64,000 bases of DNA from an uncultured Poribacteria bacterium (GTDB lineage Bacteria; Poribacteria; WGA-4E; WGA-3G), in NCBI GenBank assembly GCA_958296135.2, contig CATQHZ020000001.1:2688001-2752000 (forward strand). The letters are read 5' to 3'. The notes under the pieces were generated by a model that made no database searches, had not been told where the DNA came from, and saw only the letters and a list, made by a program, of their open reading frames with translations. The position numbers and the translations under genes are program-made. Position 1 is the first letter of the stretch, and every line of letters starts with the position of its first letter. Shown in pieces: positions 15,639 through 45,747 of this stretch.

Positions 15639-16367
15639 ATGAAAACTCTTATGCAATATCCTGTTGTGATTTTCAAAGATCCGGATAGCATCTACGGCAT
15701 CGTTGTCCCAGACTTACCCGGGTGTATTACCGCCGGAAACACCGTCGAGCATGTGCTGACGCAAGCCGTGGAAGCCATTAAATGTCATCTGAGTGGCATC
15801 TTGACTGATGGAGAACCGATTCCGGAACCCAAGGACATCGCCTACCATCAGAACGACCCGGAATATGCCGATGCACTTCAGTGGGACACCGTGACGATAA
15901 CGCTGCCCGAACTCCGCCACTATCCGGTCCTGATATCCCGAAAACGGCGGAAGCACTACCGGCTCATCGTCCCAGACTTGCCCGGCTGTGTCGTGCGCGG
16001 CAAGACAGCACGCAATGCACTCGCGAAAGCAGGACTCGCCATCGAACGCTATATGGAAGCAAGAGTCCTTAAGGACGAAACAATACCCGAACCCAAACCC
16101 CTCGCGCACCATCGCGATAACCCCGCGCAGCCGGCGGGACAATGGGACTCGGTGCCGATTATCGTGCCGGAAATCAAGCATCTCCTCATCGCGCGCCCGG
16201 GACGCATCTCCCGCTTTTTCCGAGGGCTCGGGTTCACACGCTTTCCGTGGGAAGCACGCCCGCACCCCTGGATTCGCGGCGCGCGACCGCCGGAATGGCA
16301 AGAGGACAACACGCAAACAAAAGCGGCAGCGTTGAAAACGACACCGCAATTCGCGCAAACTGATTAA
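15639..16367 (+). CDS. hicB: HicB-like antitoxin with two tandem HicB domains
   Basis: YPV.I...Y...VPDLPGC...G.T occurs twice, each followed by IPEPK. Confidence 0.85.
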   Translation: MKTLMQYPVVIFKDPDSIYGIVVPDLPGCITAGNTVEHVLTQAVEAIKCHLSGILTDGEPIPEPKDIAYHQNDPEYADALQWDTVTITLPELRHYPVLISRKRRKHYRLIVPDLPGCVVRGKTARNALAKAGLAIERYMEARVLKDETIPEPKPLAHHRDNPAQPAGQWDSVPIIVPEIKHLLIARPGRISRFFRGLGFTRFPWEARPHPWIRGARPPEWQEDNTQTKAAALKTTPQFAQTD

Positions 16368-17691: not shown

Positions 17692-18882
17692 ATGACAACC
17701 GCTGAAATTAAAACGATGGCGACAGAATACATTATTAACACCTACGGCGACAGAAACCTCGCCTTCGTCAAAGGCGAGGGACCTTATCTCTGGGATGCCG
17801 AAGGCAAGCAGTATCTTGACTTCCTCGGCGGGCTCGCTGTCAACGGACTCGGGCACTGCCATCCGAATGTCGTCGCCGCCATTCAGGAGCAGGCAGGCAA
17901 ACTGCTGCATACCTCTAACCTCTACTACATCCAACCGCAGGCAGAATTGGCGAAAATGTTGGTAGAGAATTCCGACATGGACCAGGCATTTTTCTGCAAC
18001 AGCGGCGCAGAGGCGAACGAAGCAGCCATTAAACTGGCGCGCAAGTTCACCAAAGACAGCGGCCGGCCGGATGCCTACGAAATCATCACGATGGACGATT
18101 CGTTCCACGGACGAACGATGGCAACCATCACCGCCACGGCGCAGACAAAATACCACGTCGGGTTTGAACCGATGCTGGAAGGCTTCACCTACGTGCCGTT
18201 TGATGATTTGCCTGCAACCGAAGCCGCCATCAACGAGCAGACCTGCGCGATTTTGGTAGAACCAATTCAATCCGAAGGCGGAGTCAACATCCCTAGCGAC
18301 GGCTACCTGCAGGGACTCCGCGCGCTGTGCGACAAACACAACCTGCTCCTCATTTTCGACGAGGTGCAAACGGCGATGGGGCGGCTCGGCACCTTCTTCG
18401 GCTATCAGAGTTACGGCGTTGTCCCCGATGTCATCACAATGGCGAAGGCACTCGGCAGCGGTGTGCCTATCGGTGCGATGCTCGCGAAGCGTGAGATAGC
18501 AGCGAGTTTCGTCCCCGGCACGCACGCGGCGACGTTCGGCGGAAACCCGCTCGTCACAGCAGCGGCCCGCGCAACCGTGAAAACTATCTTAGACGAAAAT
18601 CTCGCCGTGAACGCCGTTAAGATGGGGAATTATCTCGCCGGCGGGTTGATGGAACTCAAGGGCAAATATCCTATCAAAGAGGTGCGCGGGAAGGGCCTGC
18701 TCCGCGGGCTCGTGATGGATGTCGATGCCAAACCACTCGCCGCGAAGTGCATCGAAAACGGGCTCGTCACCATCTGCACCAACGATTATGTGCTCCGGTT
18801 TTTACCGCCGCTCAATATCAACACGGGACACGTTGAGGAGGCGGTGAACATCGTCGAAAAATCGATGGGCGAGGTTTTTTGA
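17692..18882 (+). CDS. argD: Acetylornithine aminotransferase (class III PLP)
   Basis: FFCNSGAEANEAAIKLAR, SFHGRT, EPIQSEGG, DEVQT, MAKALG, TFGGNPL. Confidence 0.92.
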   Translation: MTTAEIKTMATEYIINTYGDRNLAFVKGEGPYLWDAEGKQYLDFLGGLAVNGLGHCHPNVVAAIQEQAGKLLHTSNLYYIQPQAELAKMLVENSDMDQAFFCNSGAEANEAAIKLARKFTKDSGRPDAYEIITMDDSFHGRTMATITATAQTKYHVGFEPMLEGFTYVPFDDLPATEAAINEQTCAILVEPIQSEGGVNIPSDGYLQGLRALCDKHNLLLIFDEVQTAMGRLGTFFGYQSYGVVPDVITMAKALGSGVPIGAMLAKREIAASFVPGTHAATFGGNPLVTAAARATVKTILDENLAVNAVKMGNYLAGGLMELKGKYPIKEVRGKGLLRGLVMDVDAKPLAAKCIENGLVTICTNDYVLRFLPPLNINTGHVEEAVNIVEKSMGEVF

Positions 18883-22996: not shown

Positions 22997-25441
22997 ATGA
23001 AAACTACTGATAATCAACGTCATAATGATTCGGAGTCTACGCGTTCCGCTAACAATACTCGGTTGGATAGGATCGAGAAGTTACAAGAACGCGGTGCTGA
23101 ACTGCAAATAAAAACGGACACGCATCTTGCTGCGAGTGTTGAACGCGACGCTGCACACGCCGCTCGTTTGGACAGTATGGAGGAACTGCTCCCACACATT
23201 GTAGAACTCCAAGTGCAAACAAACGCGCGCCTCACCGCCAACGAGGCACTGGATGCCGAACGCGATGCCCGCTTAGATAGTTTTGACGAACTGTTTCGGC
23301 GGATAGGGGAGTTCCAAGCGAAGACAGAGGCACTTCTCGCCGCCAGTGCCGAACGCGACACCGCGCGCGAGACACGCCTAGAGAGCATCGAGGAATCGTT
23401 CCAACGTATCGGAGAATTCCAAGCTAAAACGGAAGCACTTCTCGCCGCAAATGCCGAACGCGACACCGCGCGCGAGACACGCCTAGAGAGCATCGAGGAA
23501 TCGTTCCAACGTATCGGAGAATTCCAAGCTAAAACGGAAGCACTCCTCGCCGCAAATGCCGAACGCGACACCGCGCGCGAGACACGCTTAGAGAGCATCG
23601 AGGAATCGTTCCAACGCATCGGAGAATTCCAAGCGAAGACAGAGGCACTTCTCGCCGCAAATGCTGAACGTGAGGCAGAACGCGAGACACGCTTAGAGAG
23701 CATCGAGGAATCGTTCCAACGCATCGGAGAATTCCAAGCGAAGACAGAGGCACTTCTCGCCGCAAATGCTGAACGTGAGGCAGAACGCGAGACACGCTTA
23801 GAGAGCATCGAGGAATCGTTCCAGCGCATCGGAGAATTCCAAGCCAAAACGGAAGCACTCCTCGCCGCCAGTGCTGAACGCGACACCGCGCGCGAGGCAC
23901 GCCTAGAGAGCATCGAGGAATCGTTCCAGCGTATCGGAAAATTCCAAGCCAAAACGGAAGCACTCCTCGCCGCCAGTGCTGAACGCGACACCGCGCGCGA
24001 GGCACGCCTAGAGAGCATCGAGGAATCGTTCCAGCGTATCGGAGAATTCCAAGCCAAAACGGAAGCACTCCTCGCCGCCAGTGCTGAACGCGACACCGCG
24101 CGCGAGGCACGCCTAGAGAGCATCGAGGAATCGTTCCAGCGTATCGGAAAATTCCAAGCCAAAACGGAAGCACTCCTCGCCGCCAGTGCTGAACGCGACA
24201 CCGCGCGCGAGGCACGCCTAGAGAGCATCGAGGAATCGTTCCAGCGTATCGGAGAATTCCAAGCGAAGACAGAGGCACTTCTCGCCGCCAGTGCCGAACG
24301 TGAGGCAGAACGCGAGGCACGCCTAGAGAGCCTCACGAACGTGCAATCCAAGATGGAGGCCCTTCTCGCTGCCAATGCGGCGCGCGATACTGAACGCGAG
24401 ACACGCTTGGAAAACCTGGAGGACCTGTTCCAACAGATTGGCGCGTTCCAATCAAGGACAGAGACACTCTTCGCCGCTAGTGCCGAACGGGACGCAGCAC
24501 GCGAGACACGCTTGGAGAATATTGAAGCATGGCATCAGCAGACAGCTGAGTTCCAATCAAAGACAGAGGCACTCTTCGCCGCTAGTGCCGAACGGGACGC
24601 AGCACGCGAGACACGCTTGGAGAATATTGAAGCATGGCATCAGCAGACAGCTGAGTTCCAATCAAAGACAGAGGCACTTCTCGCCGCCAGTGCTGAACGG
24701 GACGCAGCACGCGAGACACGCCTAGAGAGCATTGAGGAATCGCTCCGCCGCATCGGAGAATTCCAAGCCAAAACGGAAACCCTCCTTGCCGCCAGTGCTG
24801 AACGCGATGCAAAACGCGATGCACACTTGGAAAGCATTGCAGCGTTCCAAGCCAAAACAGAGGCGCACTTTGCCATGAGTGCCGAACGAGACGCAGCACG
24901 CGAGACACGCCTAGTGAGCATCGAGGAATCGCTCCGCCGTATCGGAGAATTCCAAGCCAAAACGGAAGCACTCCTCGCCGCTAGTGCCGAACGTGATGCT
25001 GAACGCGATGCACGCTTGGATAGTATTGCAGCGTTCCAAGCCAAAACGGAAGCACTCCTCGCCGCTAGTGCCGAACGTGATGCTGAACGCGATGCACGCT
25101 TGGATAGTATTGCAGCGTTCCAAGCCAAAACGGAAGCACTCCTCGCCGCTAGTGCCGAACGTGATGCCGAACGCGATGCACGCTTGGATAGTATTGCAGC
25201 GTTCCAAGCCAAAACGGAAGCACTCCTCGCCGCTAGTGCCGAACGCGATGCCAAACGGGATAAGCAGCTGGAGGGTATGAATGAAAAGGTGGCGAACACT
25301 GAAAAATCCGTTGAGGCATTGAAGGGCGCGCTGACCCCCTGGAAACTTGTCCTCGGCGGAATCGTTAGTATCATCTTTGCCATGGTTTTGTCTGTGCTCG
25401 GCGCAAAAGGCATGGAGGTACTCCTAGACCTCTTCAAATAA
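22997..25441 (+). CDS. Long coiled-coil repeat protein with C-terminal transmembrane anchor
   Basis: About 22 repeats of 35 or 28 aa; hydrophobic tail LVLGGIVSIIFAMVLSVLG; AAGGA RBS. Confidence 0.85.
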   Translation: MKTTDNQRHNDSESTRSANNTRLDRIEKLQERGAELQIKTDTHLAASVERDAAHAARLDSMEELLPHIVELQVQTNARLTANEALDAERDARLDSFDELFRRIGEFQAKTEALLAASAERDTARETRLESIEESFQRIGEFQAKTEALLAANAERDTARETRLESIEESFQRIGEFQAKTEALLAANAERDTARETRLESIEESFQRIGEFQAKTEALLAANAEREAERETRLESIEESFQRIGEFQAKTEALLAANAEREAERETRLESIEESFQRIGEFQAKTEALLAASAERDTAREARLESIEESFQRIGKFQAKTEALLAASAERDTAREARLESIEESFQRIGEFQAKTEALLAASAERDTAREARLESIEESFQRIGKFQAKTEALLAASAERDTAREARLESIEESFQRIGEFQAKTEALLAASAEREAEREARLESLTNVQSKMEALLAANAARDTERETRLENLEDLFQQIGAFQSRTETLFAASAERDAARETRLENIEAWHQQTAEFQSKTEALFAASAERDAARETRLENIEAWHQQTAEFQSKTEALLAASAERDAARETRLESIEESLRRIGEFQAKTETLLAASAERDAKRDAHLESIAAFQAKTEAHFAMSAERDAARETRLVSIEESLRRIGEFQAKTEALLAASAERDAERDARLDSIAAFQAKTEALLAASAERDAERDARLDSIAAFQAKTEALLAASAERDAERDARLDSIAAFQAKTEALLAASAERDAKRDKQLEGMNEKVANTEKSVEALKGALTPWKLVLGGIVSIIFAMVLSVLGAKGMEVLLDLFK
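23275..25270. repeat. Intragenic tandem repeat, 105-bp and 84-bp units
   Basis: Unit spacing of 105 bp (e.g. 23378 to 23483); near-identical copies. Confidence 0.95.
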
Positions 25442-25451
25442 AGGAGGACAC

Positions 25452-28400
25452 ATGCCTCAAGATATCATTGACAACCGCAACGAAAAACTCATTGACAATG
25501 TCAATCTCATCTTGGATGAGACAGAGCGGGCCCGCTTCGCTGTCGGCTACTTCTTCCTCTCCGGGTTTACCGGCATCGCCGAGGCACTGCAAAACGTCAC
25601 TGAGCTCTGTCTCCTCATCGGGAACACGAGCACACGCGAGACTATTGAGCAGCTCGCCGCAGGGTATCAGCAGCTGGAATCTGTAGCGGAGATTCACTCG
25701 GCACACCGCTATTCACGAGACGTTGAACGCAGGGCACGCGCTCGTGAAACCGCGCAGAACCTCCGCGCGTGCATTGAATTCATGCCTCAGACAAATGCCT
25801 CGGAGCAGCTCATCAGAACCCTCGTTGAGATGATTGCCCGCGGACAGTTGAAAGTGAAGCTCTATACGAAGGAGCGTCTCCACGCAAAAGCCTACATTTT
25901 TGATTACGAGCAAAATGCGCGGTTTGAATCCGGCATCTCTATCGTCGGCTCATCTAATCTCACCTTGGCAGGGTTAACGAGCAATACCGAATTGAACGTC
26001 GTGGTTCACGGCAATGCCAATCAGGAGCAACTCCGCGACTGGTTTGACGCGCTGTGGGAAGAGGCAGAAGATTTTGACAAGGCCTTGATGGAAGAGATGC
26101 AAACCTCCTGGGCCCTCGCGCCTGTCCGGCCTTACGATGTCTACATGAAAACGCTCTACGAGTTGGTAAGCGACAGAGTGGCGGCGGATGAAAGCCGCAT
26201 CGCTCCAGCAGACGAGTTGACAACCCAACTCGCGGATTTCCAACAAGTTGCGGTTTCCCAAGCAATTCGGATTATTGATGCATACGGCGGTGTCTTCATT
26301 TCCGATGTCGTCGGTTTAGGCAAGAGTTACATCGGTTCGGCGATTGTCAAGCACTTTGAGCGGGGTGAACAGGCGCGCCCGCTCATTCTCTGTCCGCCTG
26401 CGTTGATGGCAATGTGGGAGCATTACAACGCCGCCTATCAACTCCACGCGCAGGTTCTCTCCACGGGGCTTTTAAGTAGCGGTGAAGCGAACGCGAGAGA
26501 GCTGCTCTTTGAAGACGTTCGCTATCGGCACTGCGATTTTGTCCTCGTTGACGAAAGCCACAACTTCCGCAATGCGAATACGCAACGCTACCGGGTTTTG
26601 CAGGAATTTCTCATGGCGGGAGAGAAAAAATGCTGTTTCCTCACGGCGACACCGCGCAACAAAAGCGCGTGGGATATCTACCACCAACTCAAACTCTTTC
26701 ATCTCAACGATGATACGCAGCTGCCCTTGGACGCGCCAGATCTGCGCGAATATTTCCGCATGATTGAAAACGGTGAACGCAGCCTCCCCGCGCTTTTACA
26801 ACACATTCTTATCCGTCGAACGCGGAACCACATCCTGCGCTGGTACGGCTACGATGCAGAAACAGATGAACCGGTAGATGCGACGCAATTCGCCGATTAT
26901 CTGAGTCGCAACCGCCGCGCTTACGTTCGCGTCGGCGATACCAAGCAGTTCTTTCCAAAGCGAACCCTCAAGACGATTGAATACAGCATTGAAGAAACCT
27001 ATCAAGGGCTCTACGCGCAGATTCGCGATTGCCTCGGTAAATCGCAATCCGCCGCGCAGTTGACTTATGCCCGTTATGGCCTCTGGCACTATGTGAAGGA
27101 GGAGAGACAGGATGTCCATCCGTATCAGGAGCTGCAGAGCGCGGGCAGAAACCTCCGCGGGCTGATTCGCATCCTGCTATTCAAACGTTTTGAATCCAGC
27201 GTGCATGCTTTCAAAATGACTATCTCTCGGTTTCACAGCGTCCATGTCGATTTCCTTTACGCGCTAGAAAATGGCATTGTGCCAGCAGGCGACGATGCAC
27301 AGAAAATCCTCTATGAGACAACCACCGCCGACCAAACCGATATCAGCCCAGAGGAACGAGACATCGGGCTGTTTCTGGAGGAACTGCGGCGTGCCTCCGA
27401 GCAATATAACATCCTAGACTTCAACGTCCCTGAACTTCGCGATGCAATTCAGCACGACATTGACATCCTGAAGCAGATTTTAGATATGGTTCAGAATATC
27501 ACCCCGGCACAGGATGCAAAACTTCAGCGGCTGCAAAGACTGCTGGAATTGCCACCTTTACACGGCAAAAAACGGCTCATCTTTACGCAGTATATTGACA
27601 CGGCAAGTTATCTCTACGAAAACCTGCAGGCGGAGGATACCGAGGTTATCCATAGCCACGGCAGCGACAGGAAACAGCATGTCGTCGGTAGGTTTGCGCC
27701 AAACGCGAATCAATACCGCTTGAAACCGGGGGAGACAGAGATAGAGACGCTCATCGCGACTGATGTCCTCGCCGAGGGGTTGAACCTGCAAGACTGCGGC
27801 CTGCTCATCAACTACGATTTGCATTGGAATCCGGTGCGTCTCATTCAACGCTTCGGGCGCATTGACAGGATTGGCAGTCAATTTGACGAAATCCACGGGT
27901 TCAACTTTCTGCCGGAGTTGGGGATTGAGCGCAACCTCGGTTTACGCGAGAAACTCCGACACCGCATTCAGGAAATCCACGATACCATCGGCGAAGATGC
28001 AGCCATTCTGGATAACTCCGAACAACTGAATGAAAGCGCGATGTATGCCATTTATGAGCAGCACGGTGAACAGCTCAGCCTTTTGGAAGAAAGCGAGGCG
28101 CCGAGTTTCGGATTAAGCGAGGCGGAGGAGTTGTTGCGGCAATTGAAACGGCAAAACCCGCAGGAATATCAACGCATCGCCGAGCTAAGAGACGGCATCC
28201 GTACCGGCATCCCCGCCGAAGTGGAGGGCACCTACGTTTTCTGTCGCGACGAACGTAACCGGCAGCTCGTCCTGCTTAATGAAAACGGAACTGAAAAGAC
28301 TACGGATATTGCCGAGATCCTTCGGCTACTTCAAAGCAATGCTGAATTGCGCGGCAAACCTGTTTCGCCTGAGCACAACGCCCGCGTCACTGAAGTGCAG

Positions 28401-28754
28401 GAAAAGTTTGCAGGACAAATCAGAGGCGTGCAAAACGCATTTCCCAAACCGAATTTGTCCCGCGCGCAAAGATACATCTTGCAGGAGTTAAGAATGCTGT
28501 CTAGCACTTCGTCAGACAGTGTGCTAGGGCAGCTTGAGCAGGCGTTCCGCGGCCGCTTGACAGAGAGCCTCAAGCGAGAAATCACTCGTCTCCAGCGCGA
28601 GAAAATCGCGGGCGAAGCACTGTCAACGGCGTTGAAAAATCTCTATCACCGCTACAATCTGGCGGCGTTAGGCAGCGGCGAGGCACAGCCAGATAAGCCG
28701 GTCCGCGCGCCGATTAAGGTGATTTGCAGCGCGGCGTTTGTTAAATTTGCATGA
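25452..28754 (+). CDS. PLD-nuclease / SNF2-family helicase fusion
   Basis: FAVGYF, LHAKAYIFD and GSSNLT (PLD); DVVGLGKS, DESH, LTATP, TDVLAEGLNLQ, WNPVRLIQRFGRIDRIG; AAGGAGG RBS directly after the upstream stop. Confidence 0.92.
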   Translation: MPQDIIDNRNEKLIDNVNLILDETERARFAVGYFFLSGFTGIAEALQNVTELCLLIGNTSTRETIEQLAAGYQQLESVAEIHSAHRYSRDVERRARARETAQNLRACIEFMPQTNASEQLIRTLVEMIARGQLKVKLYTKERLHAKAYIFDYEQNARFESGISIVGSSNLTLAGLTSNTELNVVVHGNANQEQLRDWFDALWEEAEDFDKALMEEMQTSWALAPVRPYDVYMKTLYELVSDRVAADESRIAPADELTTQLADFQQVAVSQAIRIIDAYGGVFISDVVGLGKSYIGSAIVKHFERGEQARPLILCPPALMAMWEHYNAAYQLHAQVLSTGLLSSGEANARELLFEDVRYRHCDFVLVDESHNFRNANTQRYRVLQEFLMAGEKKCCFLTATPRNKSAWDIYHQLKLFHLNDDTQLPLDAPDLREYFRMIENGERSLPALLQHILIRRTRNHILRWYGYDAETDEPVDATQFADYLSRNRRAYVRVGDTKQFFPKRTLKTIEYSIEETYQGLYAQIRDCLGKSQSAAQLTYARYGLWHYVKEERQDVHPYQELQSAGRNLRGLIRILLFKRFESSVHAFKMTISRFHSVHVDFLYALENGIVPAGDDAQKILYETTTADQTDISPEERDIGLFLEELRRASEQYNILDFNVPELRDAIQHDIDILKQILDMVQNITPAQDAKLQRLQRLLELPPLHGKKRLIFTQYIDTASYLYENLQAEDTEVIHSHGSDRKQHVVGRFAPNANQYRLKPGETEIETLIATDVLAEGLNLQDCGLLINYDLHWNPVRLIQRFGRIDRIGSQFDEIHGFNFLPELGIERNLGLREKLRHRIQEIHDTIGEDAAILDNSEQLNESAMYAIYEQHGEQLSLLEESEAPSFGLSEAEELLRQLKRQNPQEYQRIAELRDGIRTGIPAEVEGTYVFCRDERNRQLVLLNENGTEKTTDIAEILRLLQSNAELRGKPVSPEHNARVTEVQEKFAGQIRGVQNAFPKPNLSRAQRYILQELRMLSSTSSDSVLGQLEQAFRGRLTESLKREITRLQREKIAGEALSTALKNLYHRYNLAALGSGEAQPDKPVRAPIKVICSAAFVKFA

Positions 28755-28775
28755 AACTTGCATTTGTGGTATTAT
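28747..28775 (+). promoter_or_regulatory. Sigma70-like promoter of the TGT-ArcS fusion gene
   Basis: TTGCAT-17-TATTAT with extended -10 TG. Confidence 0.6.
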
Positions 28776-28820: not shown

Positions 28821-30752
28821 ATGCACACACACGAGAACGCTCGCGACACAAAAACCGACAGCGCGCCCACTATCTTCCGCACCGTCACTGCCACGGAGCA
28901 TGGACGGATCGGTGAATTGCACTTTCGCGCGGGAAACAGAAAATTGGAAACGCCGGTTCTCTACCCGGTCATCAATTTCCTCACCGGGACAAGCGCGCGC
29001 GGCGGCGGCGTTTGGAAATACATCCTCCGCAATTTCATGCAACACGATACCCCAACGCTATCCCAGGTCTTGCACTTTCTAGATTTCAACTTCACTGGGA
29101 AGTATCTCGCAAATTGGCGAAAAAAGTCGATGCGGGAGCATTACCTCGAACAGAACGGCGATTACCAAGGCGTGCTCTTTTTGGATTCGGGCGGCTTCAA
29201 ACTCCTTTACAACACGGGGTTGGATTTATCCGAATTTGGCATCCACAAAGAAACAGAGGCGGACGATATTCTCGCCATACAACTCGATTTTGATGGCGAT
29301 ATCGTCGCGTCGTTAGACTATCCTATCCCGCCGAATTTGGCGCGCGCTGAAGCAATACAACGGATGGAGAAGAGTTTTGCCAACGCCCGCCGCGTTGCGC
29401 AACAGTTGAGCGGCAAAACGGATATGCCCTACTTTTACGTTTGTTGTCACGGGCAATCCGGGCGAGATATTCAAGGCTACGTCCACAATGTCTTTGAGCA
29501 GATTGGCGAGTTGCTGCCCTCTTTTGGGTTGGCGGTCGGTTCTCTTGTCCCGTTGCGCGGCAAAAACGATTGGGCCGTCATGGAACTTCTCAACGGCGTA
29601 GTGGAGACACTCCCCGCGGCCCGGCGAGATAGCACACCGATTCACGCGTTCGGCGTGTCCGGTATGCTGACGCCTATCCTCGCTTATATCGGGGTGGACA
29701 GTTTTGACAGTTCGTCTTACGTCCAAGCCTCGCGAAGCCTCGCCTATTCGCACCCTGAAACGCTCAAGAAACTGAAGATTATGGAGATGGACGCGCTCAC
29801 TTGTGAGTGTTACATCTGCCAAGCTATCACGCTTGATGAAATCCAGCAGGGGTTCATGGAGGAGAAGAGTTATCAAGCCACCTCAACCGGCAAGTTTAAA
29901 AGCGAATACTACGCACTCCTCTCACTCCACAATTTTGAAATGGAGACGCGGCTGCTAACAGCCATGCGCGAGGCAATTCAGGCTGACGACGCGATTGAGG
30001 GGTTAACGCGACATATCGGAAAATTCCAACGCAACCGCGGCATCCGGGATGCCGTAGAATGGCTTTCCGCGAAAGATTTTGACGTGGCCACCCGGCTGAC
30101 CCGGACCTTGGTGCACATACCGATGGCCGCTGAGAAGTCAACTCGGAACCCAAATCAGTTGGAACTTTTCCCTTATGATACCTCGGAAAGTTCAACGACA
30201 CTCCTCCATGAGGACGAAACGCCGACTATCTCGCTTAACTATACGCCAGAAGATTTTCGCGTGCCAGCGGATTATCAGCCTCCGGCGGGAGTAGACATGC
30301 TGTTGGTAATCCCGTGCGCCGGACAGAAGCCGTATTCGCTTTCACGCACCCACACGTTGATGGCGAAAAAACTGCAGGAGGCATTCCCTGAAAAACATCA
30401 GCGGATTCACAAAGTCACGCTCTCCGGACTCTACGGCCCCGTCCCCGAAGAGTTTGAGGAAGAGGAAGCACTCGTTCGCTACGATTTCCAACTCGCAGCG
30501 CAGAACACCGCGCAGATACAACTCTGTGCGACGCGCCTCATTGACTATCTCCAAAAATATGGAGAGCAGTACGTCTTTACTGTCGGATATGCCACGAGCA
30601 AGGCTTACCGTGAAGTGCTTGCTATCGCCGAAAGCCGGTGCTCAAACTTCGTTTTGATGCCGAAAGTGCTCAAGCAGAAACGCTTGTCTGAATTCTTTCG
30701 GCACGTGCATTTAAACGCCTTGGTTGAGGAAGTCCAGAAAAAATTGGAATAG
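28821..30752 (+). CDS. TGT-superfamily transglycosylase fused to an ArcS-type (DUF5591-like) domain
   Basis: RIGEL...ETP, FLDSGGF, SLDYP, AVGSLVP, IHAFG, GVDSFDSSSY, Zn site CECYIC...HN; C-terminal PCAGQKPYSLSRTH and GPVPEEFE. Confidence 0.85.
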   Translation: MHTHENARDTKTDSAPTIFRTVTATEHGRIGELHFRAGNRKLETPVLYPVINFLTGTSARGGGVWKYILRNFMQHDTPTLSQVLHFLDFNFTGKYLANWRKKSMREHYLEQNGDYQGVLFLDSGGFKLLYNTGLDLSEFGIHKETEADDILAIQLDFDGDIVASLDYPIPPNLARAEAIQRMEKSFANARRVAQQLSGKTDMPYFYVCCHGQSGRDIQGYVHNVFEQIGELLPSFGLAVGSLVPLRGKNDWAVMELLNGVVETLPAARRDSTPIHAFGVSGMLTPILAYIGVDSFDSSSYVQASRSLAYSHPETLKKLKIMEMDALTCECYICQAITLDEIQQGFMEEKSYQATSTGKFKSEYYALLSLHNFEMETRLLTAMREAIQADDAIEGLTRHIGKFQRNRGIRDAVEWLSAKDFDVATRLTRTLVHIPMAAEKSTRNPNQLELFPYDTSESSTTLLHEDETPTISLNYTPEDFRVPADYQPPAGVDMLLVIPCAGQKPYSLSRTHTLMAKKLQEAFPEKHQRIHKVTLSGLYGPVPEEFEEEEALVRYDFQLAAQNTAQIQLCATRLIDYLQKYGEQYVFTVGYATSKAYREVLAIAESRCSNFVLMPKVLKQKRLSEFFRHVHLNALVEEVQKKLE

Positions 30753-30759
30753 GAAAAGC

Positions 30760-31929
30760 ATGAATAGCTACTTTTTACCGCCACGCATTGAATGTGGCAA
30801 CGGGGCAATCAAAGACTTGGCGGCGCATGTTGAACACCTCGGCGGGCGAAAACCGCTCGTGGTGAGCGATGCCGGTGTCCGCAGCGCGGGCATCCTCGCG
30901 AGAGCCATCGCGCCGTTGGAAGATGCCAATATCCCTTATGCCGACTATACTGAAATCGAACCGAATCCGACAGACATCAGCACGGAAAAAGGCGCAGCGT
31001 TGTGGCAAACGGCGGAATGCGATGTCATCGTCGCCATCGGCGGCGGCAGTGTGATGGATGCAGCGAAAGCCATCCGCATCTTGACGACGCATGAACCGCC
31101 GTTGGAGCCTTACTACGTCGATGTCGGCGGCAGGGAACGCATCCGCGATGACATGCCGCCCCTGATTTGTGTCCCGACGACAGCTGGCACTGGCAGCGAA
31201 GTCTCGCAAGGCGCAATTATCACCGATACATCGCAAAACACGACGGATAGATGGCGAAAGCGCGCAATCGTCACGCCGCTGAATATGTCGAACATCGCGC
31301 TCCTCGACCCGAGGTTAACGGTAGGAATGCCGATGCCGCTCACCGCCGCCACCGGCATGGATGCCATCACGCACGGGATTGAAGCGTATGTTGCCACGAG
31401 ATACCACCCTATCTCCGAAGGTGTCGCATTGCAGGCACTGAAGATGCTCGGCGCAAATATCCGACAAGCGTATCACCACGGCGACGATGTCGCAGCGAGA
31501 GGCGAAATGTTGCTCGGCGCAAGCATGGGCGCGTTTGCCTTTCAGAAAGGACTCGGGGCTGTCCACTCAATCGCGCATCAGTTGTCCACTGAAGCACCCA
31601 TACCGCACGGTGTCGCCAACGCGATACTGTTGCCACCGGTGATGGAATTTAACTTCTCTCATGCCGTGGACAAATACGCCGAGGTTGCCGATGTGTTAGG
31701 CGTAGACACTACCGGCATGTCTATAGAAGCAGCGGCGCGCGCCGCTATTGATGACATCCGCGCACTGAACGAGGAATTACGGATGCCAGCAGGGCTCGGT
31801 GCCTGCGGTTTAGCACGCGAAATGCTCCCCAAACTCGCCGCTGATTCTATGCTGGACCACTGCTACAAATCCAATCCGCGCCCCTGCACCGAAGACGATA
31901 TGTTGGCGTTGCTGGAAGCAGCGTTCTAA
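30760..31929 (+). CDS. Iron-containing alcohol dehydrogenase
   Basis: GGGSVMDAAK, PTTAGTGSE, GMDAITHGIEAY, HSIAH, HGVAN. Confidence 0.92.
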   Translation: MNSYFLPPRIECGNGAIKDLAAHVEHLGGRKPLVVSDAGVRSAGILARAIAPLEDANIPYADYTEIEPNPTDISTEKGAALWQTAECDVIVAIGGGSVMDAAKAIRILTTHEPPLEPYYVDVGGRERIRDDMPPLICVPTTAGTGSEVSQGAIITDTSQNTTDRWRKRAIVTPLNMSNIALLDPRLTVGMPMPLTAATGMDAITHGIEAYVATRYHPISEGVALQALKMLGANIRQAYHHGDDVAARGEMLLGASMGAFAFQKGLGAVHSIAHQLSTEAPIPHGVANAILLPPVMEFNFSHAVDKYAEVADVLGVDTTGMSIEAAARAAIDDIRALNEELRMPAGLGACGLAREMLPKLAADSMLDHCYKSNPRPCTEDDMLALLEAAF

Positions 31930-34974: not shown

Positions 34975-35556
34975 ATGAATGCACTTGAAACTTCGCAATT
35001 CGTTCCAGAAAAACTTCCGCCTAGCCTGCCAGGCGAAAATGTCACCATGACGTTGGAGGAATTCCTTGCCAGCGATTTAGAAGGATACGAATACGTTAAA
35101 GGAGAATTAGTCCCAATGCCACCCACTTCAATGGAACATGGCGAGATTAGCACCAACGTTGATTGGTACCTGCAATCGCATGTGCGTGCGAATCAGTTGG
35201 GGCGTATCTATACCTCCGACACGGCGTTTCAAGTAGGCGAACGCATGCTAATCCCCGATGTGGCGTTTTTGTCAAATGCAAAAATGCCCGATGACCTGAG
35301 CAAGGCGTTCCCGATTCCGCCGAACCTCGCGGTTGAAGTGGCTTCTCCATCGGACGTGCTGGCACGCGTCGCCGAAAAAGCACTCACCTACTTGCAGGCA
35401 GGCACGCAACTCGTCTGGGTGATTGAACCGGTCGCGCAAATGGTGCTAGTTTACCGCTCCGAAACAGATATCAAGGTGCTCACGCGCAACGACACCCTCA
35501 CCGGTGAGGATGTCGTTGAAGGTTTCGCTTGTAAGGTGGCGCAACTTTTTGAATAG
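34975..35556 (+). CDS. Uma2 (DUF820) family endonuclease
   Basis: YEYVKGELV, PDVAF, P.LAVEVASPSD, YLQAGTQLVWVIEP. Confidence 0.9.
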   Translation: MNALETSQFVPEKLPPSLPGENVTMTLEEFLASDLEGYEYVKGELVPMPPTSMEHGEISTNVDWYLQSHVRANQLGRIYTSDTAFQVGERMLIPDVAFLSNAKMPDDLSKAFPIPPNLAVEVASPSDVLARVAEKALTYLQAGTQLVWVIEPVAQMVLVYRSETDIKVLTRNDTLTGEDVVEGFACKVAQLFE

Positions 35557-41952: not shown

Positions 41953-44900
41953 CTAGAACTCTCTTTCTTCGCCAATCTTGGCATGTTCAATGCCCCCATC
42001 CAGTTCTTCCACGTATTCATCAATCCATCGTTTGACATTTGCATCACCTTCAGTCTCTCTGATGCGAAGCAGCTTCTCTCTTTTCCGATCAAAGTGCAAG
42101 CTGCGATCCCCAGTCCAAGATTCCGTGGAATAATTTGCGCGCAGGTTCCTGCGGACATCTTCCCGTTCGCCATAACGAACGAGCGTTGCCCGCGCGAAAG
42201 AATTTGGCCATTCTTCGACAGAAAGGGTGTGGGGAACGAGTCTGTATGCGAAATACCACGCCCGGTTTTCCACGTCCTGATTAACCCATTCCCAAATTTT
42301 TTCGCGTGGGATGAAGGATAACGTTCCTCCTTCTTCCTCGATTGACGATGAATAGCTCCCCGTGAGCCAACTTTCTAGGGACGAAAAGCAGTTTTCCGGT
42401 CCCAAGTGTTTGCTCACGAGCCCCCACACGACTGCAGGGTAGCGTTTCGTGATCTCAGTAAGCACCGATTCAGCATCGGTATTGATTCCGCCAACGATGG
42501 TGCCCCTCTCACCGAAGTGAGCAACCATTAACGCTACAAGCTCCAAACTCTTTTCTGGCCAGCGATTTAGGAACGTTTTCCCAATTTCCGCCCAGAAGTG
42601 GTATGTCATTGCAATATTAAAAGGGGCTCCATCCGATTCTTCAAATAGCACCGGATGAGCAAGCAATCGGTACGCCAATTCAAGCCGCAAGGCTCGGTTT
42701 TCCCGCTCGTGAATATAGTAGAAATAATACAACGGGATTGCAATTGAGATAGCTAACTTATCCGAGCAAGTCAGCAAGAACTCAATCCATGCTGTGAACG
42801 TTTCGTCGGACAAGTTGTCAATAATCTTGCCAGCGACAAAAAGTCCGAAGGCATTGGTACCAATAACCCCCTTTTTGGCAAGAGTGAGGAGGCGCGAACC
42901 AGCGCGATCTGTCAGGCCTGAATATTGCGTCAGTTCTGGAACCAACACATTCAAAGTGGTATCTTCACTTAACGTATCAAGTTGTTCTTCCCACTGTGCC
43001 ACGTCACTCTCAAACATCGTGCGGAAATAGCAGCCGAGAAAAAAGCCGCTTGCATCTTCTCCCGCGTTGCGTTGGGCATCCAGGAGAATTGGCAGCAGGG
43101 AAAAACCGTCGTCCCTATTCCCGAGCGCATATCCAAAGGTTCCCGCATTCTGTGCCGCCGTCGTGACGAGCCACGGCAGTTCTGTTCGTAAAAGAGATGG
43201 ATTCTCAATAGCTTGCTGCGCGAGGTTATGGACTTGCGGATGGCCGTGTTCAAGGTAATTTTTGTTTTCGTCAAACAGGTCCTCCTGCAAGGCCATCCCA
43301 ACATACCGGCGCATGAGGGACTGAAAATCATCTGGAACTAAGCTATCCCTGAGTTGCTCCCAGTGTTTTCGGGTTCCGTCAGGCAAGTCTTCGGCGGCAC
43401 CGCGAAGAAAGTCAACAACGGTTTTGATGAGTTGCTTTTCATCAACCAACGCCTCTTCCGCGAGCATCCGAAGCGTCTCCACAATCATATCGCTCAGATT
43501 CGCTATCTGTCCGAGTCCGTGGGCTTGCACAAGCAGAATGTTTGCGCCGTTTTTTTGTTCCTCCTCTGGCAAACGAGGCAATTGTTCGGCCAGAAGGTGC
43601 CAGACACGGCGGTAGGCATCAAAAAATTCGCCGCATGTCTGCGGATTCCAAAGTTGAGGTTCCTTGCGCAAGCCTTGATATTCTGGCCCCGCCATCCGCG
43701 AAAAACGCCTGGATTCTAACGCTACATCGCAAGCTTTCAACGCCAGCGCGCGTCTCTCCTTTGAACCCGATTCAAACGCCTCTTTCAAGATAGGAAACCG
43801 TTCTTCTGGAGAAGCCTCAGTAGGCGCGACTGGGCCGTATCCCGGCGAAAAGAGCCCCGCGAATACGCCGCTGGCGTTGTTTCTGCAAGTTTCATTCTCT
43901 GCTTCGCCGAGGGCGAGGAGCAACCGCGCTGCATCCGCAAACTGCTCACGCCACATGGCAATCTTTTCAAGAGCCCAGATCACATGCCTTCGTCCCTCTG
44001 TGAATTGCAACAGCGTCTCTTTATCCCAGGTGCCCAGCGTTCGTGTCAGGCACCTTAAGGCAGATTTCGGATCCGCTTCAGTCAGTGCCGAAAAAAAACG
44101 GCTACCCAACCTTGTGTTCAGATACGCATCATCCTGAAATGGCCCATCCGGACTGAGGAGGTCTTTGACGATTCTTGACGCAGCATCCGACTCGGCGGCG
44201 TACTGAAACATCTCATAGAACCACTCAACCAACTCCGATTTTAAGCCTTGGGTGAATTCCTCAAGATTGAAGAGCCGCCCATAAGTGTCCCACCACTCTG
44301 TCCATAACTTGATATGGAGTGCCTTTGGGGTGATGTAAAGCGTAAACTCGCCTTGCAGGATTTTGCGGTCTCTTAGCTCTTTAACAATTTCCTGAAAGTC
44401 TATCCAGGGAACCTTCGCCTTTTTGGCGATAGATTGGGCTTCAGCGATAACCGATCGCTCAAAACCGAACCGTTTAAAGAGCGCAAGGTGTCGAAGCACT
44501 CGCTGACGCTGTTTGACTTTTTGGCTGGCTGGATCGTCGTTCCCGGCAACGTAACGTCCCCAAATATCGACCGTGCTCGGCGTTTTTAGCACGTCATCTG
44601 GATGCCTCACCAAGTTCCCCGCGATGACATGCGCGACTCTCGGAGAGCCGCTACAGAGTTCAGCCCAACGATCGGCTTGGAAATCCAAAATAGGCATATA
44701 GTTCTGGATGATTCGGCGAATTTGCTCGTTATCAAGCGGCGGTATGTCATGGTAGATGATACCCCCGGACCTCGCCTCGTAATCATTAGAGATAGTAACC
44801 AATTTGATCCGCGCACCGCGATATTTGAGTTTATTCCAGATATCAAAACTGCGACCCGAATCGCACTCGTCAATCACCAAAATGGCGGTGAATGGGTTAT

Positions 44901-45747
44901 CGTCCCGGACGAGTTCATTCATCAAAACGCTATTCCGAAACTGAGCCGCGGTGCAATAGACAACCAGCGGCACTAAATCTTCTGCAGCCCGTGTGGCCTC
45001 AAAAACCAGCCTCGTTTTGCCGATGCCGGGTTCCCCCAACACACGCACATGAACCGTATCATCGTTCTGCCGCAGTTCATTTTGGATTTGTGAAATCAAC
45101 TCGTTCTGTGCTTGCCCTGGGACAAATTCAACACGCATGTCTGCATTTTGCGACCAGCTCTGATGCGTCTGAAACTGCGCATGACTGCGTCCATTAACTT
45201 GCAGTGCCAACGATGGAAACTCGTTAAGAAAACCGATTAAAGTGTTCTGGCCCCACACCTCAATCTTGGGATTTTGATAACCACATCTTTCGTTTAGAAG
45301 GGACTTGATGTGACAGAGAGCCTTGCTACGCTGGCTAGCAGAAAGTTCAATACCGGTGCAAACCAAAACGTAAGTGCCATTATCATCAAGACAGGCCTTG
45401 ATGCTTTCTCCAAGTTTTTTTGGCCGGCTTTTTGTGCCGAAGAATTCCTTAAGGATTTCGGATTTTTGCGACGGTTTGAACTCACCGGCTTTAATTTGGT
45501 AACTGGTCTTCCCGGGCTTAATTAGCCCGTTTTCCTCGGTGATTTGAGCATCATCAACGGTAGCATCAACCCCACCATCTTGGACATTAACCCAACTGGG
45601 ACCGGGGACGTTAATCTTATTGATTCCTAGCCCGATCTTGTGGGCTTCGGCCCAAAGCAACTGCTGAAAGAAATCAACCGCTGCCCGATCATTAAGCCGG
45701 CCGAGGTCTTCATTTGTTACGGTGAAAATGTTATGGTGATTCATCAC
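41953..45747 (-). CDS. Putative defence NTPase: PD-(D/E)xK-like nuclease + STAND-like P-loop + long helical C-terminus
   Basis: DGGVDA...YQIKAG; Walker A GEPGIGKT; Walker B ILVIDEC; GSP motif; 1264 aa. Confidence 0.7.
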   Translation of the reverse strand: MMNHHNIFTVTNEDLGRLNDRAAVDFFQQLLWAEAHKIGLGINKINVPGPSWVNVQDGGVDATVDDAQITEENGLIKPGKTSYQIKAGEFKPSQKSEILKEFFGTKSRPKKLGESIKACLDDNGTYVLVCTGIELSASQRSKALCHIKSLLNERCGYQNPKIEVWGQNTLIGFLNEFPSLALQVNGRSHAQFQTHQSWSQNADMRVEFVPGQAQNELISQIQNELRQNDDTVHVRVLGEPGIGKTRLVFEATRAAEDLVPLVVYCTAAQFRNSVLMNELVRDDNPFTAILVIDECDSGRSFDIWNKLKYRGARIKLVTISNDYEARSGGIIYHDIPPLDNEQIRRIIQNYMPILDFQADRWAELCSGSPRVAHVIAGNLVRHPDDVLKTPSTVDIWGRYVAGNDDPASQKVKQRQRVLRHLALFKRFGFERSVIAEAQSIAKKAKVPWIDFQEIVKELRDRKILQGEFTLYITPKALHIKLWTEWWDTYGRLFNLEEFTQGLKSELVEWFYEMFQYAAESDAASRIVKDLLSPDGPFQDDAYLNTRLGSRFFSALTEADPKSALRCLTRTLGTWDKETLLQFTEGRRHVIWALEKIAMWREQFADAARLLLALGEAENETCRNNASGVFAGLFSPGYGPVAPTEASPEERFPILKEAFESGSKERRALALKACDVALESRRFSRMAGPEYQGLRKEPQLWNPQTCGEFFDAYRRVWHLLAEQLPRLPEEEQKNGANILLVQAHGLGQIANLSDMIVETLRMLAEEALVDEKQLIKTVVDFLRGAAEDLPDGTRKHWEQLRDSLVPDDFQSLMRRYVGMALQEDLFDENKNYLEHGHPQVHNLAQQAIENPSLLRTELPWLVTTAAQNAGTFGYALGNRDDGFSLLPILLDAQRNAGEDASGFFLGCYFRTMFESDVAQWEEQLDTLSEDTTLNVLVPELTQYSGLTDRAGSRLLTLAKKGVIGTNAFGLFVAGKIIDNLSDETFTAWIEFLLTCSDKLAISIAIPLYYFYYIHERENRALRLELAYRLLAHPVLFEESDGAPFNIAMTYHFWAEIGKTFLNRWPEKSLELVALMVAHFGERGTIVGGINTDAESVLTEITKRYPAVVWGLVSKHLGPENCFSSLESWLTGSYSSSIEEEGGTLSFIPREKIWEWVNQDVENRAWYFAYRLVPHTLSVEEWPNSFARATLVRYGEREDVRRNLRANYSTESWTGDRSLHFDRKREKLLRIRETEGDANVKRWIDEYVEELDGGIEHAKIGEEREF

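Follow-up and report, generated by a model that had tools for sequence, protein, structure and literature searches.

A single protein encoded in a 64,000-nucleotide stretch of DNA from a sponge-symbiotic Candidatus Poribacteria bacterium (the window; contig CATQHZ020000001.1, positions 2,688,001 to 2,752,000 of the forward strand) joins a tRNA-guanine transglycosylase (TGT) domain to a DUF5591 domain, the catalytic core of archaeosine synthase (ArcS). The protein (P0001; 643 aa, window 28821–30752 on the plus strand) is referred to here as T. Its two domains are intact and constrained together, and the cell has its own supply of the 7-deazaguanine precursor preQ0. The family of T is linked repeatedly to genes for preQ0 synthesis or import and, in two separate lineages, to DNA-directed defence modules. 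We propose that T probably carries out two-step 7-deazaguanine chemistry, in which a base is exchanged and its nitrile group is then converted; DNA is proposed as the target more tentatively, with slightly less than even confidence. Base exchange with a 7-deazaguanine followed by nitrile conversion is a known kind of chemistry, whereas a single-chain, catalytically complete form lacking the PUA domain, and the distribution of this form, are undescribed.

Domain composition and catalytic residues

In a Pfam scan of T, the TGT family (PF01702) covered residues 28–392 (E 3.1e-19; 69.7 bits against a cut-off of 26.3), and DUF5591 (PF17884) covered residues 480–606 (E 1.8e-13; 51 bits against a cut-off of 26). 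No third family appeared at E <= 1, and neither TGT_C2 (PF14810) nor PUA (PF01472) was found. Only 37 residues follow DUF5591 at the C-terminal end, too few to accommodate C2 and PUA. An initial annotation, made without database searches, had described T as an archaeal-type TGT fused to the ArcS catalytic motif and devoid of PUA. Both of the domains it had named were found above their cut-offs, and its motif positions (DSGGF at 29184, the Zn site at 29802, and the ArcS motif at 30312–30353) are all exact in the translation. The absence of PUA extends to the relatives of T, since 120 of the 120 among the matches listed carry only PF01702 and PF17884.

The best-matching solved relative of the N-terminal domain is the archaeal TGT (arcTGT) of P. 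horikoshii (1iq8; E 5e-17 with the single sequence of T). T carries the arcTGT signature: D122, D166, D296, C328/C330/C333, and H370 align with 1iq8 (Table 1). The HAFG motif corresponds to H275–G278 in the translation. The pocket loop had been said to resemble the archaeal rather than the bacterial type, and the comparison of VGSLVPL in T with IGGVVPL in 1iq8 and AIGGLSV in the bacterial TGT (bTGT) of the same genome bears this out. The position of H210–G211 is occupied by Gln-Gly in both 1iq8 and the genome's own bTGT, whereas His-Gly and the GSLVP loop (ALGSLVP) are common to T and the DpdA-like short TGTs described below. For S. Montevideo DpdA, H181/G182 are listed as active-site residues (PMC10164549), and the motif order and spacing suggest that H210 of T corresponds to H181 of DpdA. 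According to the same source, the CXCX2CX22H Zn site is conserved in S. Montevideo DpdA, and the initial description of DpdA as lacking one is wrong.

The C-terminal domain is homologous to ArcS, a point on which the initial description depended: besides the PF17884 match, hhalign gave a probability of 99.7% (E 3e-25) against the ArcS C1 domain, and residues 480–607 of T corresponded to positions 284–405 of the ArcS profile NF040592. The motif PC-x3-KPY-x2-S-x2-H, defined for ArcS in PMC10516641 and PMC5699537, is present in T with an exact fit. A second conserved motif reads LSGLYGPVP in T and ITSPLGIVP in ArcS. The same domain was also aligned, less strongly, with a DUF6884 cluster, C-x3-K and (L/I)S(G/A)xxG being in register (hhalign probability 89.7%, E 1.9e-6). 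Pfam curators relate DUF6884 to YaaA and ascribe to it the motifs CxxxK and LSAxxG together with a cleft that binds DNA (PMC11701544); DpdC is a member of the YaaA/DUF328 family (PMC12839542).

ArcS itself consists of a TGT-like domain, DUF5591, TGT_C2, and PUA, and PUA (PF01472) accompanies DUF5591 in 120 of the 120 relatives of the verified ArcS P0266 among the matches listed. An alignment of 12 members of the T family with 14 ArcS sequences, the latter containing the PC-x3-KPY-x2-S-x2-H motif, showed that the ArcS N-domains have lost DSGGF, the Asp of LDYP, the His-Gly position, the GSLVP loop, and H275, all of which are kept in T. The LDYP position is LPHQ-type in ArcS, and only the Zn motif and the Asp residues equivalent to D293 and D296 are retained there. 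As T retains residues that ArcS has lost, it looks like an active transglycosylase to which the catalytic core of ArcS has been joined. The claim of a TGT–DUF5591 fusion thus needs to be divided: an intact catalytic N-domain without C2 and PUA is new, whereas the juxtaposition of the two domains already exists in canonical ArcS.

Placement among known families

T fell below the NCBIfam cut-offs for TgtA/arcTGT (TIGR00432; 87.3 bits against 350), ArcS (NF040592; 78.7 bits against 440, with 443.5 for the true ArcS control P0266), and bTGT (TIGR00430; 37.8 bits against 306.75). The sole NCBIfam cut-off passed was that of the superfamily model TIGR00449 (tgt_general; 74.2 bits against 47.6). A profile of the T family searched against the PDB matched arcTGT 1iq8 at E 1.4e-32 and the C-terminal part of a split ArcS (2q07) at E 2.8e-13, followed by bacterial and eukaryotic TGTs at about 1e-11, Cap10 (9ntn) at 1.7e-5, and DpdA (7ui4) at 7.3e-5. 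By these comparisons, the T family is distinct from arcTGT, ArcS, bTGT, and DpdA.

A FastTree tree of TGT domains was built with 113 rows, after 54 of 167 had been dropped as at least 85% identical; arcTGT, DpdA, and Cap10 sequences were left out, as were the ArcS N-domains, which are too degenerate. All of the two-domain proteins formed one clade (SH-like support 98), indicating that the fusion is old and arose once, and the short TGTs of about 415 aa formed a separate clade (support 99). The two-domain clade stands apart from the bTGT of the genome and from its third TGT paralog, and T thus does not group with the housekeeping enzyme.

Conservation and selection

T is a member of a conserved family and no one-off. 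A word-indexed search returned at least 120 relatives with 55–88% identity and lengths of about 600–660 aa, and an exhaustive search, which covered 1.84 billion cluster representatives, returned 553 matches at E <= 0.001 (97 at E <= 1e-30), mostly full-length two-domain proteins with identities down to about 30%. The nearest Atlas clusters combine DUF5591 with TGT and are mostly bacterial, with Chloroflexota as the commonest phylum, which we regard as a lead only. In an alignment of 32 diverse members (mutual identity 28–68%), D122, S123, G125, D166, P168, H275, G278, D296, C330, and C333 are invariant, as are H370, N371, P504, Y505, G539, P542, and R597. Conservation in at least 90% of the members was found for C328, H210, G211, G240, S241, V243, P244, C499, K503, and S508.

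T is under strong purifying selection. The ratio of nonsynonymous to synonymous substitution rates (dN/dS) against orthologs of the same genus is 0.09–0.11 overall (dS about 0.57), 0.08 in the TGT domain, and 0.07–0.09 in the C-terminal domain. Both halves of T are therefore functional. The linker is less constrained (0.19–0.23 in the same-genus comparison), and residues 396–479, between the two domains, show the highest dN/dS (0.13–0.25) and the lowest ortholog identity (0.40–0.76).

Other TGTs and preQ0 supply in the host genome

Three genes of the TGT family are present in the assembly that contains the window (G000; 5.19 Mb, 94.7% complete), namely, a canonical tgt, T, and a gene for a 348-aa paralog; the genomic loci closest to T are those of Candidatus Poribacteria metagenome-assembled genomes. 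T is not the housekeeping tgt, as a separate canonical gene lies at C1:4111780 (PF01702 E 1e-160). The preQ0 pathway, proposed for checking by the initial annotation, was found on the main contig C1, where folE, a tandem PTPS/QueD-like gene, queE, queC, and queF are all located. Thus, preQ0 and preQ1 are made by the cell, and queuosine modification of tRNA has an enzyme of its own. Within G000, DUF5591 occurs in the T gene only, and among 14 control genomes it occurs only in three archaea. No match to TIGR01210, which we take to be the family of the radical-SAM partner RaSEA, was found in G000 (94.7% complete); its cut-off was passed in 3 of the 14 control genomes.

The assembly also includes a 143.9-kb contig, C2, with a GC content of 36.8% against 54.4% for C1. 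The housekeeping-like genes on C2 share about 53% identity with their C1 counterparts, and folE, queC, queE, PTPS, DUF6884, and thymidylate kinase genes lie within about 40 kb; a PF01702 scan found no TGT on it. C2 probably represents a replicon that is foreign or was mis-binned and that brings a 7-deazaguanine gene set of its own. We discounted its second copies of queC, queE, and folE as support for preQ0 supply because of the contrast in GC content, which suggests that they may be foreign.

The 348-aa third TGT paralog (PF01702 E 3e-16) is below all equivalog cut-offs. It belongs to a gene string on one strand outside the window (C1:950516–955582; locus L010, 7516–12582), together with a HepT/Polbeta-type protein, a 530-aa protein with a weak PIN/HARP-like C-terminus, and a HerA/DUF87 ATPase. 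The string recalls the HerA-centred 'BRC' systems with a TGT in PMC12839542.

Distribution and gene context in Poribacteria

T was found in 54 of 176 Poribacteria genomes and in 44 of the 133 of good quality; these genomes are related to one another and do not represent independent events. By genus, it occurs in none of 40 genomes of g5, 12 of 65 of g6, and 16 of 20 of g15, and some genomes have two copies. The surroundings of 40 T loci were compared by simple open reading frame (ORF) calling, with clustering by BLAST. Of these loci, 14, from families f2 and f3, have a gene for an N6_N4 methyltransferase (MTase; PF01555) directly upstream of T and in the same orientation, and six of the 14 also have a MutH/Sau3AI-like gene (PF02976) there. 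The adjacency of MTase and T holds in all 16 of the f2 and f3 genomes possessing both, with outer flanks that differ between genera. In family f1, T lies directly upstream of the gene for an Fe-dependent alcohol dehydrogenase (Fe-ADH). The g6 genomes without T keep Fe-ADH and the upstream genes, and in two of them (L155 and L156) an N6_N4 MTase gene, with or without MutH-like genes, takes the place of T. As such restriction-modification (R-M) genes can stand at this spot, the region is a variable one. Of the 46 f1 genomes with the MTase, 44 lack T; in the two with both, the genes are non-adjacent.

A second paralog of T (610–618 aa, eight loci) is located among aminotransferase, cyclophilin, and KamA-like genes. 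A second T copy in one genome (L063; G031:C1:1273170–1274897) is broken by an in-frame TAG into pieces of 448 and 162 aa and is apparently a decaying paralog. Free-standing DUF6884 genes were considered as covarying with T and rejected, as they occur in 88 of the 176 genomes, including 21 of the 40 in T-free g5.

Fusions of about 590 aa in the reverse order, with an N-terminal DUF6884 domain (C-x3-K) and a C-terminal TGT-like domain (CxCxxC), were seen in Poribacteria without T: L168 8139–9908(−), L169 9719–11545(+), L170 8001–9761(−), and L171 9912–11690(+). Each adjoins conserved genes for proteins of about 650 and 550 aa. The fusion occurs in 12 genomes, none among the 54 carriers of T; in genus g6, 10 genomes with the reverse-order fusion and 12 with T among 65 do not amount to a significant difference.

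Gene context outside Poribacteria

Full-length relatives of T with 33% identity are encoded on megaplasmids of Natrinema and Haladaptatus, surrounded by genes for a DEAD-box helicase, a phospholipase D (PLD) protein, DUF6884, a short TGT, and an ATPase. From a metagenome scan, the best 80 of 239 T relatives were retained, and 53 loci of at least 8 kb, comprising the metagenome loci and the two plasmids, were inspected. T shares one gene string with a short TGT (PADLOC DpdA E 2e-6) and a GHKL ATPase in 33 of the 53 loci, with gaps of 75–100 nt between T and the short-TGT module. A 153-aa DUF6884 protein (PADLOC PDC-M57A E 1e-12; DpdC E 4e-5) is present in 32 loci, a helicase matching DpdJ (E 4e-51) in 21, and a small PLD protein in 12. 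In 18 loci, queC, queD, or queE lies beside the family member, typically divergent from T.

These elements make up a haloarchaeal-type module of queC-queE-queD, a divergent long TGT-DUF5591 gene, DUF6884, a short TGT, and a GHKL ATPase. Examples are L102 (7626–15002), L117, L118, about 30 more metagenome loci, and the plasmid loci L073 and L074. The module often adds a DpdJ-like helicase of 1370 aa, a small PLD protein, and a 970-aa ATPase, and each island has two TGTs. No description of this Dpd-like module was found in the literature searched, which covered few subscription journals.

A second kind of context is linked to import rather than synthesis. In L081 (198–908), L089 (564–1271), and the short locus L085 (258–863), a co-directional gene 19 nt upstream of T encodes a membrane protein 67% identical to a Thermomicrobium protein annotated as 'queuosine precursor transporter' (YhhQ-type, according to the annotation of the plasmid homolog). 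Conserved proteins of 936, 304, 251, and 1334 aa are encoded downstream in these transporter–T loci; the 936- and 1334-aa neighbours in L081 have no PADLOC or PDB match.

Proposed function and alternative explanations

In the reaction that we propose from the conserved residues, the N-terminal domain would flip out a guanine and hold it in a pocket formed by D166, H210–G211, and the GSLVP loop. D122 would serve as the general acid/base and D296 as the nucleophile, in line with the covalent mechanism, mediated by Asp residues, that TGTs and DpdA are known to use (PMC10164549), and the guanine would be swapped for preQ0 from the FolE/QueD/QueE/QueC pathway of the cell. In the second step, DUF5591, with C499, K503, and LSGLYGPVP, would attack the nitrile of the installed preQ0, by homology to ArcS C1 and to DUF6884/DpdC, and yield an amidine (archaeosine-like or preQ0-Lys-like) or an amide. 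Because no TIGR01210 gene was found, the product could be a lysine adduct or a direct amidine, as with ArcS2 of phage nt-1 in E. coli. The suggestion of the initial annotation that one protein inserts and modifies a 7-deazaguanine fits all of the findings here.

Our overall view, held tentatively, is that T is a self-contained two-step 7-deazaguanine enzyme that acts most likely on DNA and serves as an accessory gene of self-marking or of defence islands rather than in housekeeping. DNA is favoured because of the defence-type contexts, the DpdA-like His-Gly pair, and the pocket resembling that of the short TGTs, and also because the RNA-binding domains are missing and the distribution is patchy and partly plasmid-borne.

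A considerable number of observations weigh against this view. Concerning the protein, the N-domain profile is nearest to a tRNA enzyme, arcTGT, then to bTGT, and is far from DpdA 7ui4; T scores only 13 bits (E 0.033) with the DpdA model NF041059, the cut-off of which is 200, and with PADLOC T gave only a sub-threshold match (TGT model, E 0.007, no stretch passing by itself). S. Montevideo DpdA requires the DpdB ATPase, and no ATPase partner adjoins T in the window. Concerning the context, the R-M neighbours of T in the window are not conserved with it, and no R-M gene adjoins T in genus g6 or in the second paralog type. The Dpd-like contexts fall in another subclade (26 rows, support 99, including the haloarchaeal plasmids) than Poribacteria, and those islands already hold a complete DpdA/DpdC/ATPase-like set besides T. 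The seven loci without any Dpd-like or que genes are the closest to Poribacteria, and L078–L080, the closest relatives outside the phylum, adjoin the housekeeping genes for an ABC exporter and Lon. The counted loci are interrelated and include near-duplicates, so that the counts overstate the independent support. No T relative was found in 50,697 phage records (tblastn) or in an IMG/VR scan. The identity of T tracks taxonomy, from 89% within a genus to 50% within the class, and the Poribacteria pattern resembles vertical inheritance accompanied by losses and would suit a dispensable tRNA enzyme as well.

A broader version of our proposal is doubtful. T would represent a new and ancient class of single-chain writers, separate in origin from DpdA, that place amidino- or related 7-deazaguanines into the chromosomal DNA of bacteria and haloarchaea, including Poribacteria and probably Chloroflexota and others. 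Such enzymes might act alone or as a layer on methylation-based R-M and Dpd-like systems.

The foremost alternative, which we consider less likely but take seriously, is that T is an RNA enzyme, a minimal chain of arcTGT and ArcS in bacteria and on archaeal plasmids that makes an archaeosine-like base in tRNA or another RNA and is dispensable. The affinities of both domains agree with this, as the N-domain is closest to arcTGT (87 bits with TIGR00432; E 1.4e-32 with 1iq8) and the C-domain to ArcS C1, and T in Poribacteria is seemingly vertical, strongly constrained, and often located among housekeeping genes. The lack of PUA would be no obstacle: bTGT is likewise active without it, and ArcS of T. 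kodakarensis accepts the bare preQ0 nucleoside or 5'-monophosphate (PMC11298593), so that the C1 domain needs no PUA. On the other hand, an RNA enzyme does not readily account for the patchy occurrence (54 of 176 genomes, and none of 40 in one genus) with two paralogs in some genomes, for the plasmid-borne members and Dpd-like islands, the hosts of which would already own tRNA enzymes, or for the MTase that adjoins T in 16 of the 16 f2 and f3 genomes with both. The His-Gly pair and the GSLVP loop also match the DpdA-like short TGTs and not arcTGT or bTGT. In addition, archaeosine has to our knowledge not been reported from bacterial tRNA, although no search was aimed at this point.

Base exchange by TGTs is reversible for preQ-type bases, and T, which recurs beside R-M modules and in defence-type islands, could in principle be an anti-phage eraser that swaps 7-deazaguanine back to guanine, or traps it, with the aid of a nitrile-binding C-domain, and thereby re-exposes phage DNA to neighbouring restriction systems. 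Defence enzymes against such DNA exist: Dag glycosylases, which have other folds, attack 7-deazaguanine-modified phage DNA (bioRxiv 10.1101/2025.10.29.685425). We nevertheless find an eraser improbable, because the adjoining queCDE genes and precursor transporter imply a preQ0 supply for insertion and the conserved nitrile-converting domain would be superfluous for erasure. Deazaguanylation of a protein, as by Cap10, or a small-molecule pathway on free nucleosides or nucleotides is still more remote: Cap10 conjugates a 7-deazapurine to protein and has a weak match to the family profile (9ntn, E 1.7e-5), ArcS acts on the preQ0 nucleoside and 5'-monophosphate, and T is, by gene arrangement, (nearly) co-transcribed with oxidoreductase genes in several lineages, but the Cap10 match is far weaker than the arcTGT match, Pfam scans of the neighbours of T in the window found no CBASS (cyclic oligonucleotide-based antiphage signalling system) domain, CD-NTase, or Cap9-like partner, and Fe-ADH retains its position in loci without T.

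Gene neighbourhood in the window

In the window, T follows the genes for a type IIG-like MTase, an 814-aa protein, and a PLD-SNF2 helicase, and precedes that for Fe-ADH (Table 1). Together with the missing PUA domain, this R-M-like neighbourhood had led the initial annotation to suggest DNA, or another non-canonical substrate. The R-M genes of the window proved not to be conserved with T, and it is the other lineages that give the suggestion better support. The trio of MTase, 814-aa protein, and helicase was rejected as the partner of T, as the adjacency of helicase and T is confined to genus g1, to which the genome of the window belongs. Full-length helicase orthologs (57–86% identity) lie megabases away from T elsewhere (in G069, at 1.88 Mb and 3.22 Mb, respectively), and at E <= 1e-30 helicase orthologs were detected in 136 of 176 genomes. 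The locus of an 88% ortholog keeps the R-M-like trio, and in that of an ortholog with 72% identity (L003) a GNAT gene is found in its stead. Two haloarchaeal-type loci (L118 and L129) also contain homologs of the helicase and of the MTase. Fe-ADH is retained at the same locus in the relatives without T (L155 and L156). Domain and PADLOC scans found no dpdB, dpdC, or dpdD–K genes among the window neighbours of T. A promoter-like site 46 nt 5' of the start codon overlaps the end of the helicase gene; it is weak evidence, because five such sites were found in the region against 3.1±1.7 in shuffles.

Table 1. Features of the T gene and its neighbours, in window coordinates.
Feature	Coordinates	Strand	Basis
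T gene, 643 codons, ATG start	28821..30752	+	open frame; ORF and translation
TGT catalytic domain (TIM-barrel and Zn subdomain), residues 28–392	28902..29996	+	PF01702, NCBIfam, 1iq8 alignment
DSGGF, D122–F126, first catalytic Asp	29184..29198	+	aligned to DSGSF of 1iq8
SLDYP, S164–P168, putative base-binding Asp D166	29310..29324	+	aligned to LDIP of 1iq8
H210–G211, where tRNA TGTs carry Gln-Gly	29448..29453	+	alignment, family conservation
GSLVP pocket loop, G240–P244	29538..29552	+	family conservation, pocket comparison
DSFDS, D293–S297; D296 aligned to arcTGT nucleophile Asp	29697..29711	+	GVDLFDSASY of 1iq8
Zn site C328-x-C330-x2-C333...H370 (fourth ligand position)	29802..29930	+	aligned to CSCPVC of 1iq8
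Helical region and variable linker, residues 396–479	30006..30257	+	ortholog identity, dN/dS, gappy family alignment
DUF5591/ArcS C1-type domain, residues 480–606	30258..30638	+	PF17884, NF040592, hhalign
PCAGQKPYSLSRTH, P498–H511, ArcS motif PC-x3-KPY-x2-S-x2-H	30312..30353	+	exact fit in translation
LSGLYGPVP, second conserved C-domain motif	30420..30446	+	family alignment, hhalign
Promoter-like TTTGCA-18-TATTAT with TG extension	28746..28775	+	consensus scan; weak match
Eco57I/type IIG-like MTase, 1181 aa	19226-22771	+	Pfam, PADLOC
814-aa protein without family	22997-25441	+	sub-threshold Pfam only; Atlas recognition 1305, best score 0.84
HKD(PLD)-SNF2 helicase, 1100 aa, DrmD-like	25452-28754	+	PADLOC C3a139 'HKD+Snf2' E 1e-79
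Fe-ADH	30760..31929	+	Pfam; ATG 7 nt past T stop

A class-III aminotransferase gene at 17692–18882(+), just upstream of the R-M island and T, belongs to the same group as the gene directly downstream of the second T paralog in genus g15 (L051 11675–12865 and seven similar loci); the recurrence may be remnant synteny or chance. Further away, a 1264-aa protein at 41953–45747(−) matches PADLOC PD-Lambda-4_A (E 1e-35) and may be a defence gene; it is followed on the same strand by genes for trypsin-like/TPR and TPR proteins. The window also encodes a 242-aa HicB-like antitoxin-domain protein with two HicB stretches at 15639–16367(+) and a Uma2-family putative endonuclease (PADLOC PDC-S03, E 2e-18) at 34975–35556(+).

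Novelty and significance

The literature searched, in which few subscription journals were covered, yielded no prior description of the T family, and DUF5591 was met in one phage study only. Automatic annotation labels the relatives of T as tRNA-guanine transglycosylases. So far, 7-deazaguanine marks in DNA have been credited to DpdA-type enzymes of phages and Dpd islands, and archaeosine chemistry has been seen as archaeal tRNA biology, a few phages excepted. If our proposal is true, T would represent a third lineage of 7-deazaguanine writers and, in the broader version of the proposal, a cellular, non-phage source of dG+-type (2'-deoxyarchaeosine-type) DNA marks. DUF5591, DUF6884, and DpdC would then belong to one toolkit that was fused to TGTs more than once, and T would be a one-gene tool testable in E. 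coli. Two cultured organisms, Natrinema sp. SYSU A 869 and Haladaptatus sp. YSMS36, carry members of the family on plasmids, and the chemistry can be read by liquid chromatography-mass spectrometry. Should tRNA be the substrate, bacteria would have been found for the first time to possess an archaeosine-type pathway, a noteworthy outcome as well.

Comparison with known systems

T resembles ArcS in the order of its domains, a TGT-like domain followed by DUF5591/C1, in the exact ArcS motif, and in the Zn motif and the equivalents of D293 and D296 found in both. It differs from ArcS in lacking TGT_C2 and PUA and in possessing DSGGF, LDYP, His-Gly, and GSLVP. With arcTGT it shares the catalytic Asp residues, the Zn site, and the Val-Pro of the pocket loop. 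Unlike arcTGT, T has no tRNA-binding C1-C2-PUA tail, has H210 in place of Gln and GSLVP in place of GGVVP, and bears a fused domain predicted to convert the nitrile. The same pocket separates it from bTGT, as the tgt product of the genome has GGLSV.

The logic proposed for T, insertion of preQ0 followed by nitrile conversion, is that of the Dpd system. DpdA and T share an active-site set of Asp, Asp, His-Gly, and Asp together with the Zn site, and relatives of T co-occur with DpdA-like, DpdC-like, and DpdJ-like genes. In T, however, both steps would be carried out by one chain, and DUF5591 takes the place of DUF328 as the converting domain; no DpdB-like ATPase adjoins T in the window, and no DpdA was found in the genome. 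The DUF6884-TGT fusions of about 590 aa, whose Atlas cluster is automatically named 'DpdA', are similar in combining a C-x3-K 'cantaloupe-fold' domain with a TGT. They differ in that DUF6884 comes first, the neighbours are others, no DSGGF was found in a motif screen, and the TGT part matches the T profile only over positions 131–331. Cap10 is a TGT-family protein of type IV CBASS that conjugates a 7-deazapurine to protein (bioRxiv 10.1101/2025.04.06.647259). It is thus, like T, a TGT-fold protein, and belongs to a defence system using a 7-deazapurine, but its similarity to T is weak (profile E 1.7e-5; PADLOC E 0.007) and its target is a protein.

The closest functional precedent is found in Vibrio phage nt-1, in which DpdA2 and ArcS2, the latter consisting of DUF5591 only, were reported to produce dPreQ0 (2'-deoxy-preQ0) and then dG+ in plasmid DNA in E. 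coli (PMC10516641). As in T, a transglycosylase is combined with a bare DUF5591 core lacking PUA. The phage enzymes are two separate proteins, whereas T is one cellular chain with an arcTGT-like TGT domain.

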